The notes beneath the pieces are model-generated. The model did not search any database. It was not told where the DNA came from and was given only the letters and a program-made list of their open reading frames with translations. DNA of 63,218 nucleotides, counting the filler, from Reclinomonas americana ATCC 50394 (taxonomy: Eukaryota), in assembly GCA_048213135.1 (NCBI GenBank). It is 8 parts of 4 records of this genome, joined end to end, with 100 filler letters (N's around TTAATTAATTAA, not from the genome) between each part and the next. Parts side by side here need not be neighbours in the genome. Positions count along the whole stretch, not along the records: positions 1 to 11,586 come from PS015292.1; positions 11,687 to 25,975 come from PS015292.1; positions 26,076 to 29,772 come from PS015292.1; positions 29,873 to 33,085 come from PS015293.1; positions 33,186 to 48,490 come from PS015293.1; positions 48,591 to 55,350 come from PS015294.1; positions 55,451 to 61,237 come from PS015294.1; positions 61,338 to 63,218 come from PS015296.1. One strand, written 5' to 3'. Positions 1 to 62,651 of this stretch are shown here, in pieces. The position numbers and the translations under genes were made by a program. Within the stretch, counting starts at the first letter, position 1; every line of letters starts with the position of its first letter.

Positions 1-631
1 TCGATCGATCCACGCCTGCAACACAGTGGTGAGAGAGCAATCACATGCAAATCTCCGCGCAGTTTAAACGCAACTCTCATTGCTGTGGTGAAGTAGTACG
101 TGGCCTCTGCGCGACGCACTTGCAGTGGCGCAACACTCTCGCCCACCGCCGGCAGTGCTGCTCTCATGTGAGACACAGAGAGAGAGCTCAGTGAGACGAG
201 ATTGTGACGCAACAGGCAATGTACTCGGTCTGCCACGTGTCCTTGGACTCCTCCTCCTGTGCTCCACGCGCGCGCGCGTGTGTGTTGTGTGAGTAGTCCA
301 TTGTATCTGTGTGTGTGTGTGTGGCTATTACCTCTCGATCGACTTCGTCTTCCTCAATGGGTCGCCGATCAAACCCGAGCGGACATCGCGCCCCACTGCT
401 TCCCTCCGCCTCCGCCGGAGCTGGAGCTGAAGCTGCCACAGCACTGGCACTATCCACATCATCTGTGGCCGCAGTCGTGTCTGCGCCTCTGCCCACAGGG
501 CATGTCGCCGCGGAGATGGCCTTGCTCTCCTCCGCAACCTCTGCGACAGGGGCATCAACCACTGCAGCAGTCTCCTGTTGCTGTTGCTGCTGTTGCTGCT
601 GCAGCGCGCGATGATAAGGGCACCTGTCCAT
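1..631 (-). CDS. Unknown protein with N-terminal Cys-Pro (heme-regulatory-like) motifs and polyQ; 3' end outside the window
   Basis: ATG 631 gives MDRCPYHRALQQQ..ATCPV..ARCPLGF. A GTAATA intron plus GTTGCGT introns at 158-213 and 16-74 keep the frame open (..EYIASLPAVGES..TTAMR/AWIDR). Confidence 0.6.
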
Positions 632-768
632 TGTGTGCGTGCGTGTGATTATGCGCGCGAGGACAAACGAATGGACAGTCTGCGCGTGCTCGCATCCGGA
701 TATCTGCGCAACTATCTTTGTGAGAGACGCACACACACTTGCACACGCACACTCACGCTCGGTTTGAC

Positions 769-1994
769 ATGAGAGCGGCAGCAGTGCTTTCTCAGCTGCT
801 GCTGCTTCTGCTGCTTGTTGGCGTTGCCTCTGCAGGTAATGAATGGGTCATGTGTGTGAGTTTCTCTCACTCTCACACTCACACTCACTCACTCTCTCAC
901 ACACACACGCAACAGCGAGGTCAGCGGAGCAAACGTATCCGTGTGCGTATGCGGCACCGTTAGTGTCTCTGGCGCCCAGTGAGCAGCTGTTCTTCACATG
1001 TCGCGAGGCAAAGACCAGTCCGCAGGCACCTGCGGTGTCGGTTCTTGTCTCTCCACGAGGTCAGCGCGCACACGCGCACTCTCTCTCTCTCTCTCTCTCT
1101 CTCCTCTGTGCACTGCTCATTCCGCGAGGGCCACGCAGATGTGGATATGACGGAGACGGTGGAGGCGTTGATTTGCCGCGGTGAACAGTGCGTGCACAGT
1201 GGCGCGTTTGGTCGTGATGGACTCGCGTGGCACGATGTGGGCATGCAGTTGGGCGCAGGCAAGGGCGACCAGTACACGCTGCAGGTGCGGCACACGGGTC
1301 ACTCGATGGATGCGGTGTCGTTTGCTCTGTTGTTCGAGGTGAAGGATCCGACGGCGGCGGCGGTCGACGAGGAGGATGCCGAGTCGGAGCACAGTTTGGA
1401 GGAGGATGATATGGAGGATTGGGNNNNNNNNNNNNNNNNNNNNNNNNNNNNNNNNNNNNNNNNNNNNNNNNNNNNNNNNNNNNNNNNNNNNNNNNNNNNN
1501 NNNNNNNNNNNNNNNNNNNNNNNNNNNNNNNNNNNNNNNNNNNNNNNNNNNNNNNNNNNNNNNNNNNNNNNNNNNNNNNNNNNNNNNNNNNNNNNNNNNN
1601 NNNNNNNNNNNNNNNNNNNNNNNNNNNNNNNNNNNNNNNNNNNNNNNNNNNNNNNNNNNNNNNNNNNNNNNNNNNNNNNNNNNNNNNNNNNNNNNNNNNN
1701 NNNNNNNNNNNNNNNNNNNNNNNNNNNNNNNNNNNNNNNNNNNNNNNNNNNNNNNNNNNNNNNNNNNNNNNNNNNNNNNNNNNNNNNNNNNNNNNNNNNN
1801 NNNNNNNNNNNNNNNNNNNNNNNNNNNNNNNNNNNNNNNNNNNNNNNNTGTTTGAGCAGATGCTGGAGACGCTGGAGACTACCGTGGCCGAGGAGGAGAG
1901 AGCGGCAGCGGCGTCGGCGGCAGCCAGTGCCGGCGATAGTGCTACGACTGTTGTTACTGACGCAGCAGCAGTGGTGGCGGCTGATGACAAGTGA
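769..1994 (+). CDS. Hypothetical secreted protein (signal peptide, acidic region), interrupted by an N-gap
   Basis: Signal peptide MRAAAVLSQLLLLLLLVGVASA. Two GT-AG introns join the frames. The ORF after the gap ends ..VAADDK*. Confidence 0.55.
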
Positions 1995-2047: not shown

Positions 2048-2734
2048 CTAGGGTCCATTACTCTTTGCCAGCGACTCCGCGGGCATTGTCGTCGTCGCGG
2101 TTGTCGACGGCGCCATCAGCATGACGGTGCGGAACTCCTCGAAATCCACCTCGCCATCGCCATTGATATCGGCGGCAATCAGCATCTCCCGAAAGTCCTC
2201 TTCGCTCAATGCGACCTCCGCAGGCGCAGCACCGGGAGTAGCTGCTGCATTCCCAGCAGGCGCATTCGCCGCCAACAGCATACGAATGGCCGAGGCCAGC
2301 TCGCGCTCATTGATCTTTCCGCTCCCATCCGAATCAAACATGCGAAACACCGCGCGCAGATCGGCCTCCGGATCGCCCGCCTCCATCACCGCCACGATCA
2401 GCTCGCTCAACTCGCCAAACTCCACGAATCCATCGCTGTGCTGTCGCACCTCTTGAATGATCTCGTACACCTCAGGCGTCCACGATTTCAGCCCTGCGAA
2501 AGGAGGCCGTAAGCCGGCCTGTGTGTGAGGCAAAAGCGCGAGGCAGAGGACACACGCACCAAACTGCGTCAACACGTCGATCAACTGTGCACGAGAGCAT
2601 GAGAGACACACAAAGAGAGAGTGGAAGGCGAGCACTGAGCGTCGCGTAACCGCGTGTATTGTGATGCGCCCTGTGCGATCGCGGTCGTATCTGTCAAAGA
2701 TCACACGCAGCTTGCGTTGCAGTGCCTCGTCCAT
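2048..2734 (-). CDS. Calmodulin/centrin-like EF-hand protein
   Basis: EF-hand loops DRDRTGRITIH, DSDGSGKINERE and DINGDGEVDFEE. Two short GT-AG introns. Probable ATG at 2734 (MDEALQRKLRVIF). Confidence 0.85.
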   Translation of the reverse strand: MDEALQRKLRVIFDRYDRDRTGRITIHAVTRRSVLAFHSLFVCLSCSRAQLIDVLTQFGACVLCLALLPHTQAGLRPPFAGLKSWTPEVYEIIQEVRQHSDGFVEFGELSELIVAVMEAGDPEADLRAVFRMFDSDGSGKINERELASAIRMLLAANAPAGNAAATPGAAPAEVALSEEDFREMLIAADINGDGEVDFEEFRTVMLMAPSTTATTTMPAESLAKSNGP

Positions 2735-2824: not shown

Positions 2825-4738
2825 ATGCGGAAGAACTCGCTTCTCCTTCTCCTCTTGCTGCTGCTTGCGCTTGTGCTCAGCAGCAGCGCACGTGCTGCTC
2901 GCGACGAGGAGGAAGACGATGAGGATTTTGAGCCGCCCTCACAGGAGGAGATGCAACAGCAGTTGCAGTTTGCCATGCACACTGATGCAGCCATGAGCAC
3001 ATCGTCGCAGCCGGTGGCACCCGTGGAGAACGATGAGCGAACAGGCGCCTACATTGATGTCAAAGTAGTGTGAGTGATATGATTGATGATGACGCCTTTA
3101 AGTGACGCCTTATCCGCTCGCCTAGCGAGTGAGGCGCACATACACACACACACGCACGTGTACTGAGCGCTTGTCTTGCTTCTCAACGCACGCAGTCCGA
3201 GTGACAAGGAACGCCACGTGGCGGCCATGGTGTTCGATGAGGAGGCGCGCGAGTTGGACATTGACTGCGCGTACCTGTGCAAGCGGGCGTGCTGCAAGGC
3301 CAGTGCGGTGATTGAGGTGCCACCGGAGGGCGAGGAGGCGCTGCCGGAGCCGCCGCGTCTGCTGTGCTTTGCGGGCTGCTATCGGAATTGCACGGCTGGT
3401 GCGCCGCCAGAGCCCGAGCCGTCCGAGCCGGCGCCTGGAGTTGCGTGGCTGCTCCTGCTGGTGCTCTGGAGCGGAGATGGTGACTTATGTGTTTGTGTGT
3501 GAGTGCAGCAAGACAAGGACGCCAAGCCGCAGCGCAAGACACCAAACTCAGTCGGCAACTACCTCAAGTTCAATGGTCTGCGCCGTCGTCGCCACTTCTC
3601 TCTCACTCTCTGTGCACGCTATTGACTGCTCTGCCTCCTCCTCCGCTCTAGGTCTGAACAAGATCAGCTTTGTGACGTGGAACATTTGGGCGGTGGCCAA
3701 GTTCTATCAGGATGTGCTCGGCGGTGTCATTGTGGAGAATGCCAGCTACGACAAGTACTTTTCCGATGAGCTCTACGAGGGTCTCTTCCAGAAGGAGATC
3801 ACCGACGCGCGCATGAACCGCCAGCACCGTGCCAAGCGTGCCGTGGCCGACTTGTCGGACTTTGGCAAGGATCGCATGGCCACGCGTCTCATTAGCTTTG
3901 GTGACACGTACTTGGAGCTGGTGCAGTTTATCGGCCGTCGTCCGGCCTCGCTCACCTACACGCCGTTCCGTGCCAACTTTACGTCGCCGGGCCTGATTGG
4001 CACGGCCTACATTGGCTTCGAGGTGAAGCCGGAGGTCGATCTCGGTCGCTTCATCAACGAGTTCGAGAACGTCGCTCGCAAGCACAACTTCAACTCGGTG
4101 CGCTGCAACCGCGTGCAAGAGGTCGACGACGAGATCGACCGCATCTCCAGCGGCCGCCGCTACCCCAAGAACAACTTTTACCGCAACGCCGACGGCCCGT
4201 TCACCGGCTGGGAGGTGGCGTTCTGCAAGGGCCCCGAGGGCGAGCAGATCCAGTTCAACCAGTACAATGGCGAGTCCGGTCGTCGTCTGGCTGCCGCGTT
4301 CCCTCGGTGCGCTCTATTCTTTTTTAATGTGTACTGGTAGAGGACTCACTGCCATGTGCGTGTGCGTGCGCCCCCGACAGCTACGTGCATCAGCGCATGA
4401 GCGAGTACGCTCCGTACGAGTTCAAGGGCAAGTACCCGCCGGAGGTGGCCGACTCTGCGACCACGCTGGCCGCCGGTGCCTTTGAAGCGGAGGACGAAGC
4501 GGGTGTCAAGACGGAGCACGCTGTCAAGCCTCGCGGTGCGCGCCTGGTGTCGAAGGGTCGTGGCGGCGACGACGACGACGACGATGACGACGACGATGAT
4601 GACGACGATGACGAGGACTACGGCCGCGACGGCGCTGGCGACGATGATGACGACGACGACAGCGACGACGACGAAGACGAGCCGTCGCTGGACGTCAAGC
4701 CGCGCAGCATGGCGTCGCGCAAGCGCGAGGAGCTGTGA
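2825..4738 (+). CDS. ER-luminal VOC/glyoxalase-superfamily protein with signal peptide, Cys-rich segment, acidic tail and C-terminal REEL
   Basis: Signal peptide MRKNSLLLLLLLLLALVLSSSARA. VOC-type segments GLNKISFVTWNIWAVAKFYQDVLGG, YLELVQF and FCKGPEGEQIQF. Poly-Asp tail ending KREEL*. Four GT-AG introns. Confidence 0.7.
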
Positions 4739-5573: not shown

Positions 5574-8500
5574 ATGAGCGCGGAGGAATGGTGGCAGGCC
5601 AGTGGCGAGAGTGTGCTTCAGCGTGTGACAGAGGGCGTCAATGAGACAGCGACACGCATCGCTGCGTTTGAGGAGCACTCGTGGCGCGCACTGGTCATGC
5701 AGCGTGTGGAGAAGGTATGGTGTCACCATGCGCGTGGAAGCATGCTGTGGGCAAGTGTGTCAACGCGTGCGACAGGTGCTGCAGGAGTGGCGGGAACCCG
5801 TCTTGTCTGTGGACCAGGTGTATGCGGAGATTGTGTGGGAGACTTGTCGCGAATTGTTGCCGGCGCAGCTCGGCGTGTTGCGGGCGGAGCGTGAGGCCGA
5901 GCAGCGGGTACATGTTCTTTTGTGACTCTCCTCTGTTGTGTATGCGCTGGCTCTGATCGGGGGATCGTGGCGCAGGCTGTGGAGGTGCATCTGTGGCCTC
6001 GCCTGCGCCAATGGGCGCGAGAGACTGGCGTTGTTGAATCGTCGCCACTGGACGAGGTGAAGCAAGTGGTGATGGCGACGGTGGGCGATCCAGTGGCCGA
6101 GCTGCGGTGCGTGTGTGTGCTTGCGGATACAGGAGGAGTGACCCTCAACAGACAAGCAGGGCACGAGTGGATGCCGCTCGTCGGGCGCACTTCCAGAGCA
6201 GTTTTCCCGAGCGTGCGGCGCAGCAGGAGCAGCAGGCTCGTGCAGTGCGTCTTGCACGCTTTCAGCACCTGACGAGTGCAGTCGACGAGCAGCACGAGGC
6301 GCGACATTCGGTGCTGGAGTATGTGCGGCGTTGGGATGCACTCAGCGAGGTGTGCTTTGCGCGCGGTGCTCGTCGTGTGCGACACACCGCGCTCATCAGT
6401 GCTGCAGTGGGAGCGTGAGGAGCTGTCCGGAGAAGTCAGTGTGTGGCAGTCTGCACGGCGCCAGCAGCTGTGGGCACAACTGGCGACAGAGGAGGCTGCA
6501 TGGAGGGGCGGCTGGGACGCAGGTGGTGAGTGCCACGACGACGGCTGGGCGTGCGATACAAGCTGACAGCTTTCGACACAGTGCCGCACTTGTACAAGCT
6601 TGCGTTGGAGACTGCGCGTGTTGCTTCGCGCGTGCTGGAAAGAATCGAGGCACCGCCACGATCGTCACTCGCTGCACTCTCTGCCACGTGTATGCCGTCG
6701 CCACCGTGGTTGCAGATGCTGGCGGGTGCGTGCATGTCGCTGACCATGCCCTCCTTCGTCGTCATGCATCTCTGCCTCCTGTTTGCTTGCTAACCTGCAG
6801 TGGTGGCAGATCTGCGTCGTCTGTGGCGCAGTCAGCAACCGCTCCCCCTCGGCGAGCCTGCGTCATCGGCTGTTCCGGCCGCCGAGATGACCGCCGAACT
6901 CGTGCTGCTCACCGATTTGAGTGGTTTCGTCGCATTCGGTGTTGCGATTGGTCTCTCCTGGGATGATAGTACTCATTGCGGAAGCGATGCAGACCGACCA
7001 TCCTCGCCCTTCCGTTCCTTGCTGGCACTTACACTTGCTGCGCTGCCGTGGGATGCGAGCAGTGGTGTGACGGAGGCACTCGGCACCCTTCTCGCCCGCG
7101 ATGCGCTTGCCTGTCACACCACATTGCAGTGGGCCGAAGAGCAGCTGTCGCCCGCCATGGTTACCCACGCTGGATGCTGGTGCGTTGCCGTGTTGAGCAG
7201 TCTGCACGCAGTGCGCGCTGATGGTCACACCCGCTATTGCAGGCCGCTCGTACGCGCGCAGCTGCGCGCTGTGGATTTCACGCATCGGTGGCGTGCCAGC
7301 TTCACCTCTCATCGTGTCGAGTCGACGCATGTGCGGCGGTTGTTTGCCGCCGGGAATGTGGACTCCTCGATTCCGGCACGCCTCTGGCTGACTGGTCGCC
7401 GGCGCCTTTGTCGCGCTGCACTACAAGTGGAGGCCGCACGCCGGCGAGTGGCCGCCTCTGCTCTTCTCACTGGAGTGCGACCGGTGCGTGCCGAGCTGCA
7501 GCTGCACACCAGTGTGCTGGCACACCGAGCGACCGCCAAAACCTGTCGCTCCGCCCTCCGTCGCCTGCAGCCGTTGTGTGCGTCGCCGTCGATGTTCAGA
7601 GTGCGTCTCGTCCTCGCGACCAGCTGCTGTGCCGAGAATCCCCTCACCAACTTGTGCAGGGCTTGCTGCTGGCCGTTGCGTTGGTGTGTCGGCTAGTTGC
7701 ATTGCGCAACTCTGTGATGGACACGAGTCGTGACGTGCTGCATGCTGTGACGCAGTCGGTGAGTACTTTGTCATGGGCGTTGCGCCACGAGTAGTGTGGC
7801 GTCTCACAAAATGTACACAGGGCGATTCGGTCAACGCCAGTGCACGGCAAGCACTGGAACTGGTGCTGGCCGATGACGAGGAGCGCTTTCACGTGCAGGT
7901 ACAGGAAGCCGTCGAGTGCTCGCTTCCGTCACTGCTGGACCACACACTGCGCTGGTACGTCCGTCCACAGCGGCGCCCACACGTAATCTTCCCCCCATTT
8001 GTCAAAAGAATCGCACATGCAGTGTCGAGTCGCTGGCTCAAGTGGCACACACGCGTCGTGTGGCGTGGACGCTGGCGGTGTGTTTCCTGCAGGAACTGTT
8101 GGACTGGTGGAAAGAGGGCGGTCTGCGTGCACGACACGTAGTTCCTTGTGCGCATCGCTTCAGTGTTGCACTGGCGGATGTGTTGAGCCATCGGCAGAGG
8201 CCTCGACTGCTGTCTGTTGAACTACGTATGCCTCTCTCTCTTGTCGACGACATGGCTCCGTGGACAGCCGTGGTCGACGAGTGTCTGCTCTTGTTGAAAC
8301 CGTCGCGCATTGCTGGGTGAGTGTGTGTGGGGAGGTGACTTCCCTACCTCGTTGTATCGCCGACACGAAGTCGCTTGTGCAGTGATCGTCTGGACGTGCA
8401 TCGATGTTTTCTGCCGGCTTCATCAGCGGTCGCATTGCGCCGCCTCTTTCGCGCACTGATGGGTGTGGTGTCCACGTACTTTGTGGTGCGTGTTCCGGAA

Positions 8501-10279: not shown

Positions 10280-11586
10280 CACCGGATGTAAGAGTCGGAG
10301 ACGAGAGCAGTGTTGCTGAGGCAGTGCCCGTGGACACAAAGCCAGTGTAACAGATCTTGTACGTCTGCGACGTGAGGGAGCTGCCCACTGGCAAACCAAT
10401 CCCACCAACAGTGATGATCATGCGGCGATTCGGTCCGCCGTCATTCGATGCATATGCATAGCTGTCCATGATCACTTGCCGCGGGCCAGTCGATGTGTAC
10501 ACATTCGCTGTGTCACTGCACGTGTCTACTCAGAGGAAACAAACACCAGTAAGTAGAGCAATCGACAATACCGGCAGCAACTATTACAATGCACGCACTT
10601 TGTGTGAACATGATCGTGTCGGTCGTGCGCAGGCCAGTTCCGGTGCTGATCGCCAACGACAGAGAGGTGAGCAAAAGTGAGGACGAGCAAAGCACCTCAG
10701 ACATCTCTCTGCACTCGTGCAACGCAACAGAGTGAGCACAGCGCCAATATCCAACGTCGGAATGCTGGTGGGGGCGAAGCCCGTCAGCACCGCAGCACCT
10801 GCTCACACAGAACAATCAGTTGTCGACCTAGCTGGTATGGAAGTAATGTGGGAGAAACGCACTGACGACGGCCAGTGAGGGTGACGACAGCACCAACGAC
10901 GGCAGGTCGCTGCTGACTTGCAGGCACACGTAGTACGGCGAGCCGGCAGGATCCAGTCCAGTACCGCCGATGAATGCCGTCAACTCGGTGCGCTGCGGGT
11001 TCGTTTTCACGATGTCTGTCGCTTTGGCAGCGACAGTTGCGCACGTAGATGACGTCGAGAATTGCACCACGTCGGTGGGGTTCAGGTACAGGCCCTGTGA
11101 GTCAAATATCGTGGGAAGTGAGTTCCGCGCAGAGTAAGAGCTAGGCAACGCTCGTGGCACGCGAACCTTAACAATCACGGCCGCCATCGGATCCAAGCCG
11201 GTGATAGCGGGTGGCAGAAGGACCGAGATGCTGACCAGGCGCAGCTTCGTGGTGCCCACTTGCCTGTGCGGATGCAACCACACGCGCGCACACGCATGGT
11301 ACACACACACACGCACGCAGAGAGAGACAGAGAAAGCGAGAGAGAGTGAGAGGGAGGGAAAGAGAGAGAGGGAGAGAGAGAGAGAGAGAGAGATGTCAAG
11401 CTCGGCAGAACGCAAACAAACAGCAAGCAGAGGACGCAACGTCACAGATCCACCGCCGGGTCCAGAGCACACGTAGTATTCGCCAGCCGTAACGCTGGTG
11501 AGCTTGACATAGTGCTCCGTTGAAGTGCCAGACGCACCTGGCCCCCACCGAGAGTGAGAAGACAAGGGCTGACGCACTTGAACACC
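10280..11586 (-). CDS. Fragment of a repetitive, probably extracellular beta-rich protein (YxVC/YKIC repeats)
   Basis: Repeated units such as GLYLNPTDVVQFSTSSTC..GSPYYVC..LSSPSL and GTGLRTTDTIMFTQSAC..YKIC..LSSPTL. GTTGCGT introns at 11264-11440 and 10646-10728 restore the frame. Both ends lie in gaps. Confidence 0.5.
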
Positions 11587-44104: not shown

Positions 44105-46308
<2,204 letters not shown>

Positions 46309-46408: not shown

Positions 46409-48398
46409 CTATTGCGGTTTGGAAAAGAGCTTCTTCATCAGTGGGAACACCTCGGCCACACCACCGAACTGCATCGCAAAACGTCAATCCTTGCAAATGC
46501 ACAGCGACGTTCACAAAAAGTGAGAGCAAACACACGCACCACCGGGAAGTTGACGAGAAGGCCACGCTTCTCATAGTACTCGATGACGGGTGCGGTTTCT
46601 GTCTCGTAGATCTCCACTCGACGCTCAATGACTTCGGGGCGGTCGTCGGCACGCTGCAGCAGGGAGTTGTGCTTTCCGCACTTGTCGCACACGTTTTCGA
46701 CCTTTGGCAGCAGTGGTGGCATGAAGATGGAGCCCTCGCGGATCTCGCACACGTTGTAGTTGGCACCGCAGTTGGAGCACACGCGACGGCCGGCCTGCAT
46801 GCGAGGTGAGCGAAGGAGATGAGGGAGAGAGGGAGAGGGAGAGGAAGAGGGACGAACCAATTTGCGAATGATAATGGAGCGATCCTGCTGCAGATTGAGA
46901 ACCAGGTCGATCTGCGTGTGCGCCTTGTCGAGGCCCTCGGCTTGCGTCACTGTGCGGGGGCAGCCGTCGAGGAGCCAGCTGCGAAAGAGGAGAGGTGTGA
47001 GCAAAGGGACAGGGAGGGAGGGAGAGGGAAAGGGAGAGGGAAAGGGAAAGGGAAAGGGAGAGGGAGAGGGAAAGGGAGGAACAGAGAAGAGATAGAAAGA
47101 AGTACAGCGGTGAGGAGTCTCGAGTTTCTGCTGCGACGGAACGCACAAGACAGGAGCCAGAAGATAGAGGAGGAAGCGTGATGAATTGATACGCACAGTG
47201 GTGAAAAATCACCTGAAACGTCCACGCAGAACAGCGGCAAGAAAAGAGACAGCGTGCCAAGGAACTGAGACACACGAGGCAGAGGAGAATGGGCGAGAGC
47301 TGCATAATGACGGCGAGAGAGAGGGAGCCAGGAGTGAGATCGGCGGTCGAACCCAGCGCTCTGAAGACACGAGAAGAAAGAGAGGAATGCATGGAGCAGA
47401 GAGAGAAGGAGAGAAAAATGCACAACAGTGCACTCACAAAGAATGAGTCGCGCTTCCCAACAACACAGTGGGCGTCGCTGAACGGTGAGATGCGTTTCAG
47501 AAGTGAGGACCACAAGCACAAGCGAGGTGGGGCACGACAGACAGCGATCTACCCCAGACGCAACCAATGAGAGAGAGGAGAGAAAGAAGAGCACATCGGT
47601 GACAAGTCTTCCTTTCGAGCAGTGAGGGATCCACACACAAGCGATGGAGAATGCTTGACAGACAACGATCCACCACAAACGCAACCAACTAGAGAGAGGA
47701 GGAGAGAGCAAGAAGAACACTGAGCAGAGTAGCGGCAAGTGCGCAGTGAAGAAGCGAGAGAAATGCACGACAGAACGATCCACCACAAACCCAATCGATT
47801 AGAGAGAGTGGAGAGAGAACGCGACAAGTCTTGCAGTGGTGCATCAAAAGCGAGGTGGGATGCACGACAGACAGCGACCCGCCAATGAGAGAGACGCAGA
47901 GAAGCAACGAGAGAGACAGCGTCACTGTAAGAAACAGTGATGCAGCACAAGAATGCAGCCAATGCCCTGTGAGAGCGCAACGAAGAGCCTCCTTTCTCTG
48001 CTTCCCCCATCATCCCTTCCCCTCTCCCGTGCCACCACCAAAATAACAAACCCATTGCGCTCCTTGCCCAGCCGCTGCACCACCAATCCCAACACCGTCG
48101 CATCATCCACCAGCTCACCAGCCTCCGACTTGGCGCGAATCCGCTTACCCAACTGGTGCACCGAAGCGAAACATGATAGAAAGAGAGAAGAGGCGAGAAG
48201 AGACAGGATTCAGCTGACGTCTTTCGCACACAGTCTGGCAAAACACGAGACAGAGACAGAGAGAAACAGCAAGAAATGAGCATGAAATACAGACCTCTGT
48301 GCCAGCCTTGACTTCTGCACGAATCAAATCGCCAGCCGCAATGTGCGGCACCTGCAGCAGCTCACCAAGACGCGCAGCATACGTGCCCTTACCCACAC
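46409..48398 (-). CDS. ADK: Adenylate kinase (long Cys4 LID type), 5' end in the spacer gap
   Basis: GVGKGTYA, HIAAGDLIRAEV, GELVDD, WLLDGCPRT, GRRVCSNCG..CDKCG, QRADD. TAG stop at 46409. Confidence 0.93.
47515..47900. repeat. Degenerate repeats inside the ~1.07-kb adenylate kinase intron
   Basis: AAGCGAGGTGGG..GCACGACAGACAGCGA occurs twice, ACGATCCACCACAAAC twice, and CCAA(T/C)..AGAGAGAG several times. Confidence 0.6.
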
Positions 48399-48590: not shown

Positions 48591-50283
48591 GGGACGTGCT
48601 GACACACGACGAGCAGAAGCATCTGGGTGAGTGCTTTGCCTTTGCGCGTTGCTCGTGCTCTGTCACGTCAACCGACCGCTTCTTCGCAGCGCTGCAGAAG
48701 CAGAATGGCCCCAAGAACAGCACCCCCACCGAGGGCGAGGCGGTGAATGTGGTTCACGCCTCGACGCAGTACGAACTGGAGTCGCCGTTGCGTGCCACTT
48801 TCTTTCTCGGTACCTTGCTGTCTGTCTGCCTCTGTGTTAAATCATGCGCAGTGCGGTCATGGTCCTGCAACAAATGCTGGAGCACATCTTGCAACTCATC
48901 ACCCACGAGGCGAGCGACGTGAAGATTGCGGCCTTGCGATGCGTTGCACACGGCGCACGTCTGAACATTATCCCTCCGGCCAAGGTGTGTATGTTTGTGT
49001 GAGTGTGTGCCTTGTCGGCAGCCCTCTTCTGCGTGCCTCTGATGATGGTCGTTGATGCAGCCGGTGCGCTATGTGCTTGCTGTCATGTTTGACGCCAGTA
49101 GCGAGGTAGTGTCGTTGGCCGCCAGCACGCTGAAGAGCTTGCGCTCCGACGCCGTGTTGCCGCTCGACTTTGTGCAAGGCATTGTGCTTGGATTCGTGCA
49201 GAAAGCCGAGATGCTGCGCGACGACTCTCATCGCGAGGCGGTACTGTGTTCTCCCTGCGCTTTCCTTCGCCCCCCTCTCTCTCTTATGCTGACACATTGT
49301 TTGCAACAGATGATGCGACGTGTGCGTGACGGATACCAGCAGGCCTACAGAACACACATGAAGCAGCTCATGACCAAACGTCGTGTGCTGACCGGCGTAG
49401 CTGCGCAAATCCGCGACTGTCTCTCCTCCGTGCGCACATCGACGTCGACGGCCACTGCTTCAGCGGCGTCTGCGGCAGCAGGTTCCGCAGCGGCGGGGAG
49501 CAGTCGCGTACGGCGGGATGCGCTGCTGGTAATCTCGACGAGTGAGCGACGCGTACAGTTGGCGTGTTTCCTGCTGGAGGTGTTTGGCAATTTTGACTTC
49601 GAGAAGGAGGCCGAGGTCACGCACTTTATGCAGGTGCCGTTCAATGTCTTCTCTCTCTGTCCCTTTTCTCTGCACGCTTGTTTTCTTGCCGATCTCAACG
49701 TCCGTGCCAGGAACTCACCAAAACCACGGTGACACTCGGAGTGGGCGTGTCGGCCGAGTTGTTGCGGATTCTTGGGCGAGCCCACGTGCCGGAAGAGTAC
49801 AACGCCGATGTTGCGTGCGATTACGAGCGTGCGCATTCAATCTGCAGCGATGTATGTGTTGCTGACACCACGCGACAGGGCGAAGTCATTGGTGGCGCGG
49901 CGGAGCAGATGGTGGTGACGCACTTGTCGGAGCTGCCTGTGGAGAGACGGCAGCAAGCCGGTTCGTGTGTGCTGGTGGCCATGCTGTGCTGATTGCAGCT
50001 CACGCAATAATATTTTTGTTCACACAGAGGAGTTGTTGCAAGATGGCCACATTGTGTGTGCTGCCGTGCTGTGCATCGCACACCTCACGGCCAAGTATGG
50101 TCTTGATGTGCGCTCGGTCGTGGACAGTGCGCAGATTGGCGACGTGTCTGGGCAAGCCTCGGCCTCCAACGACGGAAGCCGGGCCGCCTGCATCGTATCG
50201 CGCGTGGTGTTGGAGCGGCTGGCCGCGCAGGCTGCTGCCCGTCTGCGCGCTCCCACTTTTGCAGAGAGCGCAGAAAAGGTGTG

Positions 50284-52617: not shown

Positions 52618-55310
52618 TCACTCCATGTTGAACTTCATGGGATGTTGCGGTGAGCGGCTGCTGTTGGTCCGTGACGACGACGAGGAGCGTGAGCTCCGCA
52701 TGCTGCTCGCCCCACTATGTGGTCGTGACATCTGCCGACTGCCTGGTCGCGGCTGCTGCTGCTGCTCCGGATCCATGATCAGCGACAACGAGTCCACCGC
52801 GACCCGCTCGTCGGATCCGCCCTCGAAGAGGGCGGCGATCTCGGGCGACAACTCCAAACCACGGACAAGCACCGGATGCAGCGTCGTGGGATTGGGCAAC
52901 TGGTACGTGCGGAGGACCTTGGGCAACTGCGGTACGATGCGCAAGTGCGCTGCGAACCGCACGAGGCTGGTGGTGAGCGTGTAATGCCACAGCTCGTCGA
53001 GCTCGTGCGCGCGCATCAAACTGCGCATGAATGGAGCTGAGCGGAAGGCAGCCGACGGACTGTGTCTGTCGTGGCCCCCGGCATTCGAGCTTCCCATGTA
53101 GGAGTGCGCGGCTTGCAGTCGACGATCTCGTTGCACGGCGGACGCGTGTTCGCGGTGCTCCACCTTCCATTGACTGTGCTGCTGGCGGAATTCGCGTGCC
53201 CACTGTCGCACCAGTGCCGCAAAGTACGCCGCCGACCCTGCCACGTAGCTGTGTGCGTCGCCGGCGGAGGCGCGATGAGCAGAGAGGGCGTGAGAAAAGG
53301 ACAGGACTCACGTCTGGACGCAACCAAATCATGCCCTTGGAGATGGCGGCTCGGAATTCGCCCAAGAAGCGCTCCTCGATAGTTACCCGGCGCAGCTTCT
53401 TGCGCTGCTCTCCCGTGACTGCAGTGGCGGCCGCGGTTTGGGCGGCCACCACTTGCGCCTCGACCGAATCGGAGATGGCCAACTGGCGTGCCGTGCAGTG
53501 CGAAAAGTGACGCTCCCACTGCAGGCCAAGCAGCCGCGGTCGCGTGCGTCTGACCAGCAGGAACGACCGGGTCCACCGTTGGCACTTGACGACTGTGAAC
53601 GCGACACATATTGGCATGGCAGGTCAGGCAGGGGTGGTGTTCGAAGGGGAAAACTCCGACACACACCTCGCGTGACAAACTGGCGTGCGGTGCGCACAAA
53701 CCGGCCAGCCTCATACAAAGACTTGAGCACGGCGCGGGCTCGCACCAGCAACCTTCTCTTGCGCATGATGCGCCACGCAAGTGACATGTGCAGTGTGTGA
53801 CTGCGCGCGGTGGAGAAGAGCATGGTCAGTGAGTCTTCGTCATTTGCAGAGATGCAGAATGCGCGCTGCGCACCGCGACAAGACTCGCGCCAGGGTGACT
53901 CGTCTCCGGTGCACGCGCAAGCGGTACACGGCCGAGATGCAGTTGGCGATGGTCATCGACGCCCATTGGAATCGGGCTTCGATGACCCGGCGCTTCCGAT
54001 TCTCCACCAAAAAGTCTCGAACGTACAGCATGCGGTTGATGAGGTTCACAAACTGGATGTCGAAGTCAGCGCACGACGTTGAGACACCAGAGACCGAAGC
54101 AGAAAAGATACTCACGTGTAGCCAGTACATCTGGCGCTTGCTCTCCATCACGCTGTTGAGCTGCGCGTGGCGAACAGTGCACAAGTGAGATTTCCTGCTT
54201 TCGTTCGTTCTGCATATCCACAAACCAGCTGCTCACGACGCTCTGCAGCCTATGTCATGCACAGCCAAGACACAATCACTCGGTGAGACGCATGCTACGA
54301 AGGGAACGCGAGTGTCCTACGTCGGCGCACTCACCTCTGCCGCTCGTATCTCGTCCTCGGTCAACATTTCCTCCTTTCGCTGCATGCGCTGCGCATCGTA
54401 CTCCTCTTTTCTTCGCCACGCCTCGGCCAGCTGCTGATCCTCGATCTCGCGCTGTGTGCGCATGTATGGCGTCAGTGAGGAGGCGAGCAAGAGAAGAAAA
54501 CATCAACGCAACTCGCTCGCGAATGGCATCCACGACAAAGTCCCACGTGCGCTCTCCTGCCTCTTTCCGATTCTCTACTGGGTACACATGCGTGCAGGCA
54601 GCCAGCTTCAGGCGACGCTCTTCTGCCAGCTCGCGCTCGTACACGGCCGTGCGCGCCAGAAGCTCCTTGTACTCGTGAGGTTCCCGATAGACCGCCAGCT
54701 GCTCCTCCGTGTGCTTCACCACACCGACGGTGCTGACGTTGCGTATCGGCACCGACCGCCTTCGCTGGCGCTTGACTGGCGGAGTCGGCAGCGACAAGTC
54801 CTCGCGATCGGTTCCGCTGCCGACGGCAGTGGTGTCGGCCTGTGGTGCCGCACGTCCTGCCGGCGTCGGAGACGATCCAGCCAGCTGTTGCTGCAGCTCT
54901 TGGCATTCTGCGCAGCAGGTGGGTGAGACAGAAGGAATAGGGAAAGAGAGAGAAGGCCGAAGGAGAACCTTGAGCGCTTGTCACCAGGGTCTGGAACAGT
55001 CGATCGAATGAGTCGCTGCCGGCGGCTGTCGCTCTTGCTTTTGAACTCAGTCCGCCACCACCACCACCAGCACCACCATGGCCACTTACGATGCCCGCGA
55101 GGGACCCGAATGGACTGGTAACAGGTCTACCGGCTCTGCGCATTGCTGCTGCCGCCTTGGGCGATCCACCTTCGAGGAACACAATCGGTGGCAGCAATGG
55201 CGGCAGCGCTGTCGGCGGCTCGGCGGAAAACACTTGGTTTGCCTTTTCCACTGCTGGCGACATGATGCTGGTTGCGGGTTTTCCCAGTCGAGTGCCTTGG
55301 GGAGGTGTCT
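52618..55310 (-). CDS. Multi-exon hypothetical basic helical protein with IQ-like segments
   Basis: Spliced segments IREREREIEDQQLAEAW.., VVKCQRWTRSFLLVRRTRPRLLGLQW. GTTGCGT intron at 54452-54512. 5' end in a spacer. Confidence 0.45.
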
Positions 55311-55497: not shown

Positions 55498-58186
55498 TGG
55501 CCTACTTTACGTGCCGCAATGCCGTCGAGTCGGTGAATGCGGCCATTGCCACCAACTACGACGGTGCGGAGATGGGCGGCGACTTGCAGCTCAATCCGGC
55601 CAAGGGCACCGTGGTGTTCGCCTCTGGCCGGCAGGGCTGGGGATTCTCGATTCCGCAGTTTGCTGCGCTGTGGATCGACAAGTTCCCCGACATGACGGTG
55701 GAGGAGCTCTCGTTTCGTGGCTGCTTGTGTCTTCGCTGCTTTTGTGTGTTTGCATGCACTGATTGTCCGTCGCAGAGAACGCTTCTGGGGCGATCATTTC
55801 TACGATGCTCGCACCAAGGTACTTGCATACAAAGTGATGTGTGTGTGTTACCGTGGTCGTGATCTTGCTCCTCACTGTGTCCTTTTGCCGGCAGACGTGG
55901 CTGACGACTCCGGAAACCGCCGACGGTCGCCAACTGAAGCGCGCTTGCGTGCAGTTTGTGCTCGAGCCCGTGTTCCAAATATGCCAGGAGGCCGAGTCTG
56001 GTGCCACACTCGAATCTCTGGCGTCCAAGCTGTCGCGCTTTGGTGTGACTTTCACACCGGAAGAGCACCGCGCCCCTCCTACAGGCCGTGACCTTGTGCG
56101 CAAGTGAGTTGTCTTGTGTCGGGCAGTGATCGGAATACTGTGGGTGTGTGTGCTCATCGTGCCCACAACGCACAGAGTCATGAACCGCTGGCTGCCGGTG
56201 CCGCGCGCCATCATCGACATGGTCATCCGTCACCTACCGTCGCCGGTGGAGGCGCAGCGTTATGTTGCGTCTTGTGGCAGCTTCTCGTGCGTGTGTGCCG
56301 CCATCATGCAACTCACACGTGATTGCAAACGACACGCAGCGAGCGGAAATTCTGTACAGTGGACCGCCCGACGACCAAGTGAGTGGACAGTGACTCTCTC
56401 TCTCTCCTCACTCTTCTCTTCTCAAGATCGCCTTCTGCGTTCACAGTACTGCGAAGCCATTCGGCGTTGCGACCCTGACGGACCGTTGGTGGTCTACGTG
56501 TCCAAGATGGTGCCGACAACGTGAGTCGTTTTGCTCCAGCTGCACTCAGATTGCAGCGATTGTGGTACAAACTGTGCATCTCCCGACAATGCAGTGACCG
56601 CGGCCGTTTCTACGCTTTCGGCCGTGTGTTCTCTGGCACCGTGCGCAGCGGACAGCGTGTGCGCATCATCACCACCGACGAGGGCGGCTCGGAACCGATG
56701 GTGAAGAGCGTGCAGCGCACCGTCATGTTTATCGGTACGTGACAGTCTTCCTCTCTACTCATTGCTTGCTGTGTTGCTGATGCGAGTGTCGATGCGTGCG
56801 CACAGGCCGGAGTGCCGCCTCGGTCGACGACATGCCCGCCGGCACCACGGTGGCCATGTCCGGCATCGACAAGTACCTGGTCAAGACGGGCACGCTGGTG
56901 GACGAGTCGAGCGTCGACGCGCATCCGCTGGTCGACATGAAGTACACGGTGGCGCCGGTGGTGTGCGTCGCCGTGCAGACCAAGAATGCCTCCGATCTGC
57001 CGACCCTGGTGGAAGGCCTCCGCCGCCTGTGCAAGGGCGACCCGCTGGTGCGCTACTACGTCGACCGCGAGAGCCAGCAGAACATTCTCGCCGGTGCCGG
57101 CGAGCTGCACATCGAAATCTGCCTCGACGACTTGCGCACCGACTACGCACCCAACATCGAGATTGTGGTGTCGGAGCCCGTGGTGGCCTACCGCGAAACC
57201 GTGCTGGGCGAGAGCACCGAAGTGTGTCTGGCGAAGAGCGCCAACAAGCTCAACCGCATCTACATGCGCGCCTCGCCGCTGGCGCAAGAACTCGTCACCG
57301 AGCTCGATCGCGGCACACTCGACGTGGGCCAGGACGCCCGCAGCCGAGCGCGCCACCTGATCGATCGCCACAACTGGGCGCCCGAGGAGGCTCGCCAGGT
57401 GTGGGGCTTTGCTCCCGAGTCGGGCCAGGGCGCCAAGACCTGCGCACTTGTCGACATGACTCGAGCCGTGCAGTACCTTCGTTGCGTCGCTGTACACGTG
57501 GACAGAAGTGGTGGTGTCGAGTAGCATGCAGGCTGACATTCTATGCAGACGAATCGCGCGAAATGATCGTGTCGGCGTTCCAGGAGACCACCGCCGCCGG
57601 CATGCTGTGCTCCGAGCCCATGTATGGCGTCCGGTTTGATCTCATGGACGCCAAGCTGCACGCCGAGAGCGCCCACCGCAACGGCCACCAGCTCGGCGCC
57701 GCCACCGGACGGTGCATGAAGGCGGCCATGTACACCGCGTCGCCTCGCCTGCTGGAGCCTGTCTACGAGTGCGAAGTGACGTGTGCCACGGAGTCCATTG
57801 GCGGCGTGTACTCGACACTTGCACGCCGACGCGGAGCCGTGTTCGCCGAGGAGTCCGGCGGTGGCGACACCACAGTTGTGCGCGCCCATCTGCCGGTGGC
57901 CGAGTCCTTTGGCTTCTCGCGCGACCTCGGCGCCGCCACCAGCGGCAGTGCGTCACCCCAGATGATGTTCAGTCACTGGCAGGTGATCAACGACGACCCG
58001 CTGGAGGCCGGCACCACGTCGAACCGCATCGTGCTGGCCATTCGCGAACGCAAGGGTCTCGGAGCCGAAATCCCTCGTTGCGTCGACGTCGTTGCACACC
58101 TGCGGACTTTCACGCGCACCCTCTACCTAGTACTGACCTTTTACATCCTTCGCACAGCGCTGAATCGGTACCTGGACCGTCTCTGA
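55498..58186 (+). CDS. EEF2: Divergent eukaryotic elongation factor 2 (eEF2) homolog; N-terminal G1-G4 region in the spacer gap
   Basis: [117 protein letters not shown]. Nine introns visible. Confidence 0.93.
56264..56339 (+). other. Representative spliceosomal intron of the /GTTGCGT donor class
   Basis: Removing it restores the conserved eEF2 AQRY|RAE, fixing the boundary as TAT/GTTGCGT...CAG/CGA. Confidence 0.9.
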
Positions 58187-59839: not shown

Positions 59840-60177
59840 GCGGCCGCGGAGAGGAAACGCGAAAGAATGAAGATCAATCACTGCACGAAAATTCATCCAA
59901 TCCGTTTTGTGTCGAGGTGCGAGAGAAGAGAGAAAGTCACTCGTCGGTATGTGTTTCCTCCGCACACACACACTCATCGCGACAGTCCGCGTGTGTCGCT
60001 CCTCCTTTGTGTCTCTCTGTTTCTCTTTGCATGTGGTACGCCGCAGTCGCACTGTTTGTTGTTGTAGTGCAGAGGCATGCATTAACTGTTCGTCATGCGC
60101 GTGCCACCAACTGTCGCTCACACACTCGTGCTCACACACACCTTCGCAGCCTGTGCCTGTGTGCGTGTATATAAACG

Positions 60178-62651
60178 ATGCAAAAGGCTCGACAACTGGC
60201 CTCGGCCGAGGCCGAGAGTGTCATTGCTGCGGCCTTTGGAGGCAGTGCCAAGAAACTCGGACTGGTGTCCGCTCCTGGCGACGATGCTCTCGCCAAGCAG
60301 GCGAAGCAGCAGGCCAGCAAGGCGGGACCCACAATGCAGTCGATAGCACCACCAGCCGACAAGAAGGAGGACAAGGTGGCGACCAGTTGCGTCGCCACGT
60401 TTTTCCCGTTCGATGCACGCGCCCGCACCCTTTTTTTGCTCACGCACACGCACAGAGGCGGGTGGCGCGCTGGACTCGAGCGGAGAGGAGGAGGAGGACT
60501 CGATGTTTGACTCGGACGACCTCGACATTGACGCGCTGGAGGGCGAACTGGATCTGGTGCGTGCTGATTTGATGTTGTATTCGCGTATTCCTGCTGCAGC
60601 TCAGCGGTGTGTGTGTGGCTCACGAATCTGCAAACATGATAGGATGGTGACGATGGAGTCGATTATGCCAATAGCAGCGATCTGCGGGAACTGTTGGGAT
60701 CACCGTCGCAGCCGAACTCGCCAGTGCCTGCAGAGGAGGCCGACAACGCGCCGGGAGCGGGGACCATGCCGAGTTCGCTGGCCGCCAGTCCCTTCAACTA
60801 CGACTCGCACGAGCTGGGAATCACACCAATCTCCACCCCGGCCCCGAACGTGGAGAAGCCGGCGATTGTGCCTCGCTTGTCGTTGGCCGGCGGTATCGCG
60901 ATGATGAATGCGTCGCCGCTGACCGTGTCGCAGCCGCCGCAGTCGGCCTCCATGTCGCCGGTGAAGTTTGCGTCGGCGACCGTCACACCGATTGACGACG
61001 ACATGGGCTTCGACGGCAATGGCACACCAGCGTTCATCCACGAGGCGGAGATGCCCAGGGCGACCGCCGCCTCTGTATCACCACCCGCCACGGTGACCGC
61101 GAACGACAACCCCGCACCGCCGGCGAGACCAGCCAGCAATGGCGCAGCGGACAAGCCAGCCAAGGCCACCACCGTCACCGACTCGGTCGATGAGAAGCTC
61201 AAGGCTCAACGCAAGGTACGCGTGCGCACACGCAGCANNNNNNNNNNNNNNNNNNNNNNNNNNNNNNNNNNNNNNNNNNNNTTAATTAATTAANNNNNNN
61301 NNNNNNNNNNNNNNNNNNNNNNNNNNNNNNNNNNNNNGTCTGTCTGTCTGTCTGTCTGTCTGTTTGTATTCTGTCTGCCTCCGTGTCTCTTTCTCCTTTG
61401 CTCTCTTTCTCTCTTTCTGAGTCTGCCTGTCTGTCTGTCAGTCTGTCTGTCTGTCAGTCAGTCAGTCTGTCTGCCTCTCTGTTTTCTGCCTCCGTCTGTG
61501 TGCCTGTCCCTTATCTAGTGTCTTTCTTTCTCTTTGTCTGTCTGCATTCTATCTTTCTGTCTCCTTCTCTCTTTCTTGCTTTCTTTCTCTCTTTCTTTAA
61601 TGTCTGTCTTTCTGTCTGTCTGTCTCTCTCTTACAAGCTCTATCACGAGTGAGTGTTTGTGTATGAAGCTTCGGCGCAAGTCTGTTGGTCACTCCTCCGC
61701 GTCTCACTCTCTTGCGCGCGCAACAGGGCAAGTTGCTGGCACAACTAGCGCAAATCCGTGACAATGTATCCTCGCTCTGCGTCAATGGCTTCTTTGTGGA
61801 CGACACGTACTCGTCGGTGTTGGTCGACGAGATGATGATGGTCCGTCGGTGGAGCTTGCCGTGAAGCCGTTTCACGATAATAATCAATTGCTGGTTGTGA
61901 ATCGCAGGACTTTCAACAACTGGAGACCGTGAGCAAGCAGCTGGCGGCCGAGTTGGCGTACATGAAATCGCACACGGACCGCATCGCCACCATGCGCACG
62001 AGCTTCGACACGCAGCGTCAGATGTACAAGGGCTACTTGGCTAACGCCAGCAATGTCAGGTAGGTGTCAGAGTCCCGCAATGCGGAAGAGGAGAGACTGA
62101 CCTGTGTTTGTACAGCGCCGGTTCATCGTCATCTCTGGGCTCCGCCGACGCCGCCACCGCCTCCAGCACCGCCTCCAACGAGATCACGTCGTTTGTGTAT
62201 GCGCGCTCGTTGCATCGACTGGAGCGGAAAAAGGTGCTGGTGGACTACGATGTGCCCATGTCGAATTCACAGTTGCGCAACAATATGTATGCATGCAGCT
62301 CTGTCACACCACCGTGCTCATCCCGCCCGCCCGCCTGCCTGTCACAGGAAAAAGAAGCTCATGGCCGAAATCAGCCCCGGTGAAGGCGGTGTGTTTACCG
62401 TACTGATCACGCAGGCGCGTGGAAGTAGCGCTGGCAGTAGTTCGGCGGCGGCCACGCAGCTGCAGTCACCGTCGTCGTCGGCGGCGACAAGTAGCAAGAG
62501 TGAGGTGGTGACCCACTTCGATTTTGATTTCTCAGAGCTGGTGGCGCTGGCGCACACTGCCAGTCGTGACACGGTGGTGCGCATGGAGGGGTTGTGTTTT
62601 GCCGTGCATGCGTTGGTGGCGTTGATCAACAGGAAGTTTTATGAGAGGTAG
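60178..62651 (+). CDS. RasGAP_C (IQGAP/RasGAP C-terminal) domain protein; centre in the spacer gap
   Basis: IRDNVSSLCVNG..DTYSSVLVDEMMMDF..QRQMYKGYL..LERKKVL..EISPGEGGVFTV..FAVHALVALINRKFY. Linkage of the low-complexity 5' part (60178-61237) across the spacer is inferred. Confidence 0.65.

Follow-up and report, generated by a model that had tools for sequence, protein, structure and literature searches.

How one U1 small nuclear ribonucleoprotein (snRNP) recognizes thousands of different 5' splice sites (donors) is an old question. Exon-side and intron-side ("left-handed" and "right-handed") classes of 5' splice sites have been linked to LUC7 proteins. A +1-shifted register between 5' splice site and U1 was reportedly described in human cells by Roca and Krainer in 2009, and a register with a bulge at +2/+3 is said to have been described by Roca et al. 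in 2012. In the parts of Tan et al. (2016, PMC4856993) on which we draw, experiments in human cells establish both the +1-shifted and the one-nucleotide bulged registers of U1, the validated noncanonical registers together account for ∼1.5% of human 5' splice sites, the +2/+3 bulge class amounts to 68 predicted sites (54 after curation) of 201,541 5' splice sites (Table 3 there), and U12-type introns make up 0.36%. For Ostreococcus lucimarinus, the consulted passages of Irimia and Roy (2008, PMC2483917) describe introns outside chromosome 2 with an "atypical consensus GTGCGTG"; changed small nuclear RNAs (snRNAs) or two spliceosomes are raised there and left open, a single spliceosome being thought likelier. 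Here we report on a 63,218-base stretch of DNA from Reclinomonas americana ATCC 50394 (GCA_048213135.1), hereafter the window, to which all intron results below refer. About one-seventh (about 15%) of the introns predicted in this 63 kb are headed by exactly GTTGCGT, a donor that shows no preference for G as the last exon base (position -1) and that we tentatively read as the ordinary donor G/GTGCGT displaced by one base.

The window is eukaryotic nuclear DNA with a G+C content of 49 to 59% and 3,349 N-masked bases. Counted on both strands, GTTGCGT occurs 40 times, against 14.6 ± 4.0 times in dinucleotide shuffles, none of which reached 40 in 100 trials, and 13.3 times as expected from a third-order Markov model. 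Simple-repeat words and GTGCGTG aside, no GT heptamer is more over-represented. Its last T matters, GTTGCGA, GTTGCGC, and GTTGCGG being without enrichment, and GTTGAGT is not enriched in the window either (4 seen, 5.7 expected). An earlier sequence-only reading of this DNA had listed 30 GTTGCGT sites as introns, all of which are exact matches on the strands given. Ten further matches lie outside that list (-913, +7675, -9350, -9495, +24586, -34325, -47564, -47685, -53324, and +54738); the gene finder described below uses two of them as donors (53324 and, doubtfully, 47685), and 24586 and 54738 are antisense to genes.

A Pfam scan of 376 six-frame open reading frames from the window supplied seeds for eight genes (EF-hand, WD40, penicillin amidase, guanylate cyclase, LRR, zinc alcohol dehydrogenase, adenylate kinase, and eEF2), and since the third codon positions of these seeds are 77% G+C, coding frames are easy to score. 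Our own gene finder combines a three-periodic Markov coding model, explicit intron lengths, and branch and acceptor matrices that were seeded on GTTGCGT sites and then retrained with all introns; its donor model was "any GT" at the start, and training ran iteratively for seven rounds, superseding an initial pass in which flat signals combined with strong penalties had given too few introns (47). The converged version predicts 184 introns in 20 gene spans, 27 of them beginning with GTTGCGT, a heptamer that stands at 0.5% of the 8,054 GT sites in the window. This heptamer was already the top donor in the first training round, when the donor model was flat (11 of 154 introns). It was again the top donor in a rerun meant to remove circularity, in which the coding and 3' models were the final ones and GT was the only donor term (22 of 181, the next heptamers having 5 each). 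Retention of the intron would introduce a stop or a frameshift in 22 of the 27 cases, in agreement with the claim that most of these introns are needed for the reading frame. Twenty-five of the 30 sites listed earlier are used by the gene finder; the remaining five (74, 213, 16765, 31774, and 33374) are without a gene model and carry branch and CAG signals, with coding-like flanks on both sides only at 213. For 21 of the 27 GTTGCGT junctions the source is the ab initio gene model, which has visible errors: adenylate kinase is fused with ADH5, one ADH5 intron is retained, and the ends of the acylase gene are wrong.

The remainder of the donor census consists of GTGCGT (26 of the 184 predicted introns), GT[AG]AGT (20), other GTNNGT (18), GT[ACT]CGT (10), GTTNCG[TC] variants (6), and 77 heterogeneous donors, some of them surely mispredicted. 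The variants comprise GTTTCGT (3), GTTCCGT (1), and GTTACGC (1), all of which had been noted before, and GTTGCGC (1); GTTGAGT, GTAGCGT, and GTCGCGT head one intron each. Among the ordinary donors GTGCGTG is the commonest heptamer, accounting for 15 of the 26 GTGCGT sites, and across the 151 non-GTT donors position +4 is C in 66 and A in 39. A CAG acceptor, often within ACACAG, GCACAG, or GCGCAG, ends 171 of the 184 introns. The genes carry many introns, 8 to 17 in each of nine larger models and 38 in one probably fused model, and donor classes are mixed inside single genes. Across genes that have at least eight introns, the share of GTTGCGT shows no significant difference (chi-square p = 0.22), its range being illustrated by the acylase model (5/13), eEF2 (3/11), and a gene at 5.6 to 9.2 kb (0/15).

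Homologous proteins were aligned to the DNA with a self-written protein-to-genome spliced aligner that applies a flat GT/GC-AG penalty and has no donor model. As judged from these alignments, six GTTGCGT junctions, three in eEF2 and three in the acylase, are pinned by homology alone. For eEF2, all five homologues give the same nine introns, identical to those of the gene finder, of which three begin with GTTGCGT (56264, 57481, and 58077) and one with GTTTCGT (55712). The boundary proposed earlier at QRY/RA is borne out, the junction at 56264 reading QRY/RAEILY, and three GTGAGT donors without a -1 G are homology-proven in the same gene. When the acylase was aligned with 10 bacterial homologues, GTTGCGT introns were recovered at 19700 by all 10 and at 18897 and 19384 by 6 each; 18114 (2/10), 18301 (1/10), and 16765 (1/10) sit in poorly conserved stretches. 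In the multiple alignment the junctions at 18114, 18897, and 19700 are gap-free, the last of them being the proposed boundary GG/DGDT, which is thereby confirmed. At 16765 the acceptor is the one used by the modelled first acylase intron, and the upstream flank is not coding-like. In the acylase an exon G precedes the homology-mapped non-GTT donors, and T, C, or A precedes those with GTTGCGT. For ADH5, in which 9 of 10 donors had been said to have a -1 G, the homology alignment gives nine introns, all nine with a -1 G and none with GTTGCGT.

The eEF2-like gene (55451-58186, +) is unusually divergent, with its N-terminal part located farther upstream, beyond masked bases. A 233-residue exon reaches a best database identity of 53 to 54%, the few organisms named among its listed matches being unrelated eukaryotes, mostly protists. 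Domains IV and V are ∼42% identical to one homologue, and the gene could be a paralogue or come from a fast-evolving lineage.

Downstream of the donor, the GTTGCGT introns resemble those of the ordinary strong classes in length (median, 71 versus 67 nucleotides [nt]; Mann-Whitney p = 0.08), branch score (p = 0.35), branch-to-acceptor distance (median, 23 versus 21.5 nt; p = 0.28), and acceptor score (p = 0.80). All 27 end in CAG, and their branch motifs include CTCAC (6), CTGAC (6), and GTGAC (3), the first two leading in both groups; the CTNAY branch is thus common to GTTGCGT and ordinary introns, as the claim of U2-like branch sites had it. As for signals of the minor spliceosome, the branch motif TCCTTRAC is absent from the window (2.4 expected), and none of the four RTATCCTY matches in it heads a convincing intron or is linked to the GTTGCGT class; the match at 24305 (-) falls within a modelled intron that has no U12 branch, and that at 61766 (+) is coding. 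Because the 3' signals are the same across classes and U12 signals are absent, we conclude that the GTTGCGT introns, which are real and short (about 55 to 85 nt), are major-type (U2-type) GT-AG introns.

Beyond the heptamer these introns share no sequence, as had been claimed: pairwise local scores for the 276 pairs of 24 GTTGCGT introns average 13.0 (maximum, 23), compared with 12.2 (maximum, 28) for shuffles and 13.0 across classes. For lack of similarity outside the splice signals, an origin as introner-like mobile introns or by target duplication was rejected; the bases flanking the introns show no preference, a direct scan for flanking repeats not having been run. Base pairing between the two ends of one intron, donor and acceptor, was also considered and was rejected, given that only 1 of 27 acceptors is ACGCAG.

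What sets the class apart is the last exon base. A -1 G precedes 3 of 27 GTTGCGT donors, compared with 19 of 26 for GTGCGT, 9 of 10 for GT[ACT]CGT, and 14 of 20 for GT[AG]AGT, that is, 42 of 56 for these three ordinary strong classes together (Fisher p = 4.7e-8), and with 114 of 157 for all other donors (p = 1.5e-9). The trained donor model favors -1 G at every site, so the deficit is not its creation, and the flat-donor run gives the same picture (2 of 22 for GTTGCGT, 17 of 25 for GTGCGT plus GT[AG]AGT; p = 6e-5). The contrast persists between the two classes that contain GCGT, GTGCGT having 19 G and 7 non-G and GTTGCGT having 3 G and 24 non-G (p = 5e-6), and -1 therefore covaries with +2/+3. 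That GTTGCGT donors have no preference for a -1 G is firm. That they avoid it is suggestive: the statement that 29 of 30 have A, C, or T at -1 is correct for the earlier list, which taken by itself has a -1 G in 1 of 30 (p = 0.0002) and was picked by eye. A trade-off between exon side and intron side recalls the LUC7-linked classes, and the degenerate donors here, exemplified by the nine in ADH5, do carry the -1 G; the difference is that GTGCGT has the same intron-side core as GTTGCGT and keeps its -1 G, which ties the loss of -1 G to the extra T and not to the strength of the intron side.

The two donors are nearly the same string. Written from its exon G, the ordinary site is G-G-T-G-C-G-T, and the other, written from its own first base, is G-T-T-G-C-G-T; they differ only at the second letter, TGCGT occupying +2 to +6 in the former and +3 to +7 in the latter, where the cut falls one base earlier. 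When GGTGCGT is read in these two registers, it describes 89 of the 184 donors at no more than one mismatch, compared with 54 of 184 for GGTGAGT. Within the GTT class +4 is the most variable position (five of nine near-variants), which parallels +3 in ordinary donors. We therefore tentatively propose, without claiming an even chance for it, that GTTGCGT is a +1-shifted-register reading of a G/GTGCGT-type footprint by the same early reader. One footprint, G-[G/T]-T-G-C-G-T, would serve both forms, its seven letters being bound in either case by the early reader of 5' splice sites, most likely the U1 snRNP. If the second letter is G, the first G would belong to the exon as its last base and the cut would follow it; if the second letter is T, the cut would precede the first G, making it intron +1, the catalytic spliceosome in each case cutting at GT. 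The exon end would be free because intron +1 G fills the slot normally taken by the exon -1 G, and the heptamer would be nearly invariant because the shift builds in a mismatch at +2, so that all other positions must match.

Several observations weigh against this proposal, the foremost being predicted pairing. We took as canonical the 11-mer U1 5' end given in Table 2 of PMC4856993, from which the host's own U1 may differ, and our duplex energy model leaves out pseudouridine and proteins. On this basis GTTGCGT is the weakest class of all, near zero in any register: in the canonical register it is not complementary to the U1 5' end, with a mean of -1.0 kcal/mol, compared with -5.6 for GTGCGT and -9.3 for GT[AG]AGT, degenerate donors reaching -4.6 and GT[ACT]CGT -5.1 kcal/mol. 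Position +5 is C in 27 of 28 GTTG[N]GT donors, against 66 of 151 at the equivalent ordinary position (p = 3e-9), and GTTGAGT is used once against 27 times for GTTGCGT, although it is expected to pair better with canonical U1. A GTGCGT donor that lacks the -1 G is expected to pair no less well than the shifted form and yet is rarer (7 versus 24), so a shifted register leaves the abundance of GTTGCGT unexplained. Finally, 3 of 27 is below the 8.5 expected for -1 G from codon-position composition under neutrality (p = 0.014), a shortfall that the proposal does not predict. The invariance of +5 C together with near-zero pairing to U1 suggests either that the center of the reader pairs with G-C or that a factor other than U1 RNA reads GCGT.

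Each of these options has its own explanation attached. In one, a dedicated or altered snRNA, whether a second U1 or a sole U1 changed at two central positions of its 5' end, would pair with +1 to +7 or with TGCGT. Such an RNA would account for the most invariant donor being the worst canonical match, for the fixed +5 C and the near absence of GTTGAGT, and for C being more frequent than any other base at +4 of ordinary donors as well. With no pairing to the exon, a model 5' end that complements the heptamer reaches -10.2 kcal/mol, and one carrying G-C at both central positions reaches -6.2 with GTTGCGT and -1.6 with GTTGAGT, the altered-U1 models spanning -6.2 to -10.2 and -1.6 to -4.5 kcal/mol for the two donors overall. 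We nevertheless consider it rather unlikely. To our knowledge hardly any organism departs from the common sequence of the U1 5' end. The eEF2 GTGAGT donors without a -1 G would be poor partners for an altered U1 by itself (-2.8 to -5.7 kcal/mol), so that two U1 species would be needed; the tolerance at +4 of the GTT class, parallel to +3 of ordinary donors, fits one shared reader; and in the consulted part of PMC2483917, a screen of Ostreococcus tauri found spliceosomal RNAs in single copy only, beside the GTGCGTG of O. lucimarinus. The other option keeps U1 canonical and has a lineage-specific protein, in the U1 snRNP or acting as an intronic splicing activator, read TGCGT and recruit the spliceosome. 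It would fit a motif that is fixed in spite of near-zero U1 pairing and a GCGT core common to the GTGCGT class, and a similar unexplained GTGCGTG is described for Ostreococcus in the same source (PMC2483917). But a protein site would need neither a nucleotide-exact distance to the cut nor covariation with -1, and no candidate factor has been identified; we regard this explanation as improbable.

GTTGCGT can also be written as GTGCGT plus one T, and the +2/+3 bulge is a validated human register (PMC4856993, Table 3); canonical U1 would then pair with G+1 and T+2, bulge one T, and resume on GCGT, and the single GTAGCGT and GTCGCGT donors, both with non-G at -1, would fit as other inserted bases. 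A bulge costs energy, however, and -1 would still face the same U1 base, so that a -1 G would be expected no less often than before GTGCGT, instead of dropping from 19/26 to 3/27; the inserted base is almost always T (27 against one A and one C), and predicted stability is near zero. This makes the bulge quite improbable, about as much so as the notion that nothing special is involved and that a tolerated donor became common through mutation bias, descent of an old intron family, or errors in the gene models. The small size of the window, the ab initio origin of 21 of 27 junctions, and the known model errors (fused genes, the wrong acylase 3' end) speak for the latter. They must be set against an enrichment that is strand- and position-specific, six homology-proven junctions, pairwise scores that match those of other introns and shuffles and thus reveal no sequence family, and a -1 covariation that is strong in both the trained and flat-donor runs. 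The least probable explanation by far is that these are minor-spliceosome introns with a diverged donor motif. An invariant intronic donor without exonic preference does resemble the U12 type, and "U12-like", the term used in the sequence-only reading, remains a fair description of the 5' end. It fails at the 3' end: branch motif, branch distance, CAG acceptor, and length are those of ordinary introns and TCCTTRAC is missing, while the donor bears no likeness to RTATCCTT, and a share of ∼15% is far above the 0.36% of human U12-type introns (PMC4856993). Of the three mechanisms offered in that reading, a repurposed minor spliceosome is thus contradicted and a bulged register is disfavored, which leaves the +1-shifted register and a variant U1 standing. 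No spliceosomal snRNA was found in the window at Rfam gathering scores.

Among described systems, the human +1-shifted register as presented in the consulted parts of PMC4856993 is close to the displaced-donor proposal: there, too, the +1 G takes the slot of the exon -1 G, +2 is mismatched, the cut is at GT, and no exon G is needed. The differences are that the human noncanonical registers have an A-rich consensus and together make up ∼1.5% of sites (PMC4856993), whereas here one heptamer makes up ∼15% of predicted introns and has C where canonical U1 wants A, and that the human register has been validated by experiment, whereas GTTGCGT is known from sequence alone and pairs very weakly with canonical U1 in silico. 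With the +2/+3 bulge GTTGCGT shares the form of an ordinary donor with one T added after GT but not the expected dependence on -1 G. Ostreococcus has in common with this window a G/C-rich GTGCGTG core, CTGAC-type branches, CGCAG-like acceptors, and two kinds of introns per genome; unlike the window, which is intron-rich with classes mixed within genes, it is intron-poor outside chromosome 2, and a GTT-shifted class is not mentioned in the consulted part of the article (PMC2483917). U12-type introns share the long invariant donor motif and the indifference to the last exon base and differ in donor sequence, branch motif, and branch distance, the 3' ends here being ordinary. Among the papers listed by searches of open-access PMC and bioRxiv text, in which logos shown in figures are not text-searchable, none presents GTTGCGT or GUUGCGU as a splice donor, and for GTGCGTG the only relevant one listed is that of Irimia and Roy. 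With noncanonical registers known only as a small minority, ∼15% of introns under one displaced heptamer, or under a second reader, would be a new form of them.

Under the displaced-donor proposal, a single heptamer in a displaced register would rank first among the donors of a genome, where noncanonical registers have so far been a rare human footnote, and the organism would offer a natural system for studying the choice of register, the role of the last exon G, and the relation of U1 binding to the later choice of the cleavage site. Should an altered or second U1 prove true instead, two donor grammars, one dependent on the exon G and one independent of the exon, would operate side by side in individual genes of a genome rich in introns, as a natural case of coevolution of U1 and its donor sites. 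A practical consequence is that gene finders and splice-site scorers that expect a +5 G and a -1 G would misannotate about one-seventh of the introns in this organism.

The acylase bears on the origin of the class. This gene of the penicillin acylase family (Ntn hydrolases; 16379-20150, +) has at least 13 spliceosomal introns, and every name given among the 120 matches listed is bacterial or metagenomic, with no more than 58% identity in one exon. It is likely, from these comparisons, a bacterium-to-eukaryote transfer with later intron gain, and the uniformly bacterial or metagenomic names suggest that its introns probably postdate the transfer. If so, the gene would show that the class can arise de novo, which does not imply preferential gain. 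The claim that GTTGCGT is "actively gained" is accordingly weak: a post-transfer origin applies to all donor classes of the acylase, and the share of GTTGCGT does not stand out across genes. Table 1 lists the introns and sites of the class and its variants.

Table 1. Introns and sites with GTTGCGT or a variant donor in the window (slash, exon-intron boundary; needed, needed for the reading frame; homologue counts, spliced alignments recovering the intron)
Feature	Position	Strand	Donor and signals	Support
GTTGCGT intron, eEF2-like	56264..56339	+	phase 0, tat/GTTGCGT, branch CTCAC	5/5 homologues
GTTGCGT intron, eEF2-like	57481..57548	+	phase 1, ttc/GTTGCGT, branch CTGAC	5/5 homologues
GTTGCGT intron, eEF2-like	58077..58157	+	phase 1, ctc/GTTGCGT, branch CTGAC	5/5 homologues
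Variant GTTTCGT intron, eEF2-like	55712..55775	+	ctc/GTTTCGT	5/5 homologues
GTTGCGT intron, acylase	19700..19772	+	gga/GTTGCGT	10/10 bacterial homologues
GTTGCGT intron, acylase	18897..18959	+	gcc/GTTGCGT	6/10 homologues, gap-free junction
GTTGCGT intron, acylase	19384..19448	+	cat/GTTGCGT	6/10 homologues, gene finder
GTTGCGT intron, acylase	18114..18188	+	cac/GTTGCGT, in frame without stop	gene finder, gap-free junction, 2/10
GTTGCGT intron, acylase	18301..18380	+	aat/GTTGCGT	gene finder, 1/10
Probable GTTGCGT intron, acylase 5' end	16765..16833	+	gct/GTTGCGT	signals only, 1/10
GTTGCGT intron	3440..3508	+	gga/GTTGCGT	gene finder, needed
GTTGCGT intron	10646..10728	-	tct/GTTGCGT	gene finder, needed
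GTTGCGT intron, 177 nt	11264..11440	-	gac/GTTGCGT, in frame without stop, weak 3' signals	gene finder
GTTGCGT intron	15508..15566	-	gca/GTTGCGT	gene finder, needed
GTTGCGT intron, -1 G	20659..20737	-	gcg/GTTGCGT	gene finder, needed
GTTGCGT intron, cyclase gene	23214..23288	-	caa/GTTGCGT	gene finder
GTTGCGT intron	24434..24487	-	cac/GTTGCGT	gene finder, needed
GTTGCGT intron	26858..26928	-	aga/GTTGCGT	gene finder, needed
GTTGCGT intron	27064..27121	-	cga/GTTGCGT	gene finder, needed
GTTGCGT intron, 246 nt as modelled	27918..28163	-	ctc/GTTGCGT, acceptor uncertain	gene finder
GTTGCGT intron	28303..28365	-	tac/GTTGCGT	gene finder, needed
GTTGCGT intron	33916..33980	+	cgc/GTTGCGT	gene finder, needed
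GTTGCGT intron	40305..40383	+	aga/GTTGCGT	gene finder, needed
GTTGCGT intron	48787..48851	+	gcc/GTTGCGT	gene finder, needed
GTTGCGT intron	49810..49878	+	gat/GTTGCGT, in frame without stop	gene finder
GTTGCGT intron, -1 G, outside earlier list	53249..53324	-	ttg/GTTGCGT	gene finder, needed
GTTGCGT intron	54452..54512	-	cga/GTTGCGT	gene finder, needed
GTTGCGT intron	60386..60455	+	cca/GTTGCGT	gene finder, needed
Doubtful GTTGCGT donor, -1 G	47478..47685	-	208-nt modelled intron in diverged ∼120-nt repeat	no coding support
Probable GTTGCGT intron, window edge	16..74	-	aga/GTTGCGT, branch CTCAC	signals only
Probable GTTGCGT intron	158..213	-	cct/GTTGCGT	signals, coding-like flanks in one consistent frame (+4.6, +4.3)
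Possible GTTGCGT intron, no gene model	31774..31848	+	tcc/GTTGCGT	signals only, no coding support
GTTGCGT at end of short modelled exon	33368..33374	-	followed by GA/GT microsatellites	acceptor not found
Variant GTTTCGT intron	6924..6992	+	gtg/GTTTCGT	gene finder
Variant GTTTCGT intron	41868..41940	+	cga/GTTTCGT	gene finder
Variant GTTCCGT intron	41298..41349	+	aag/GTTCCGT	gene finder
Variant GTTACGC intron	2585..2650	-	gcg/GTTACGC	gene finder
Variant GTTGCGC intron	24146..24327	-	aat/GTTGCGC	gene finder

Four GTTGCGT sites have a G before them, and two of these, 47564 and 47685, belong to a ∼120-nt unit present in three diverged copies at 47400-47820 (-), in a long noncoding stretch of the adenylate kinase gene. 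Each copy starts CTCTCTCT...TTG and continues with GTTGCGT or GTTTGTG. Tandem Repeats Finder reported nothing at 47.2 to 48.1 kb, although the three diverged copies are visible by eye.

Other features of the window concern neighboring genes. The last intron of ADH5 is unusually long (416 nt) and contains, at 44465-44560 (-), the sole match of an Rfam scan of the window at E ≤ 1, a weak one to snoZ178 (C/D-box snoRNA-like; 25 bits, E = 0.7), which may be an intron-hosted small nucleolar RNA (snoRNA) or a chance match. The gene model at 20329-30342 (-), with 2,009 residues and 38 introns, has at its end a class III nucleotidyl cyclase domain accompanied by an HNOBA-like segment and is probably a fusion of at least two genes; its N-terminal part may be MMACHC-like, as judged by eye. 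A polyubiquitin gene (36995-38755, +) has repeats with several substitutions relative to the best database matches (best identity, 95%), a GTGAGT intron at 37050-37135 in the first repeat, and no extra residue between repeats. Long GA, GT, and CT microsatellites occur in intergenic DNA and in many introns, as at 33190-33370, and GTGTGTG is found 251 times in the window, against 58 expected.

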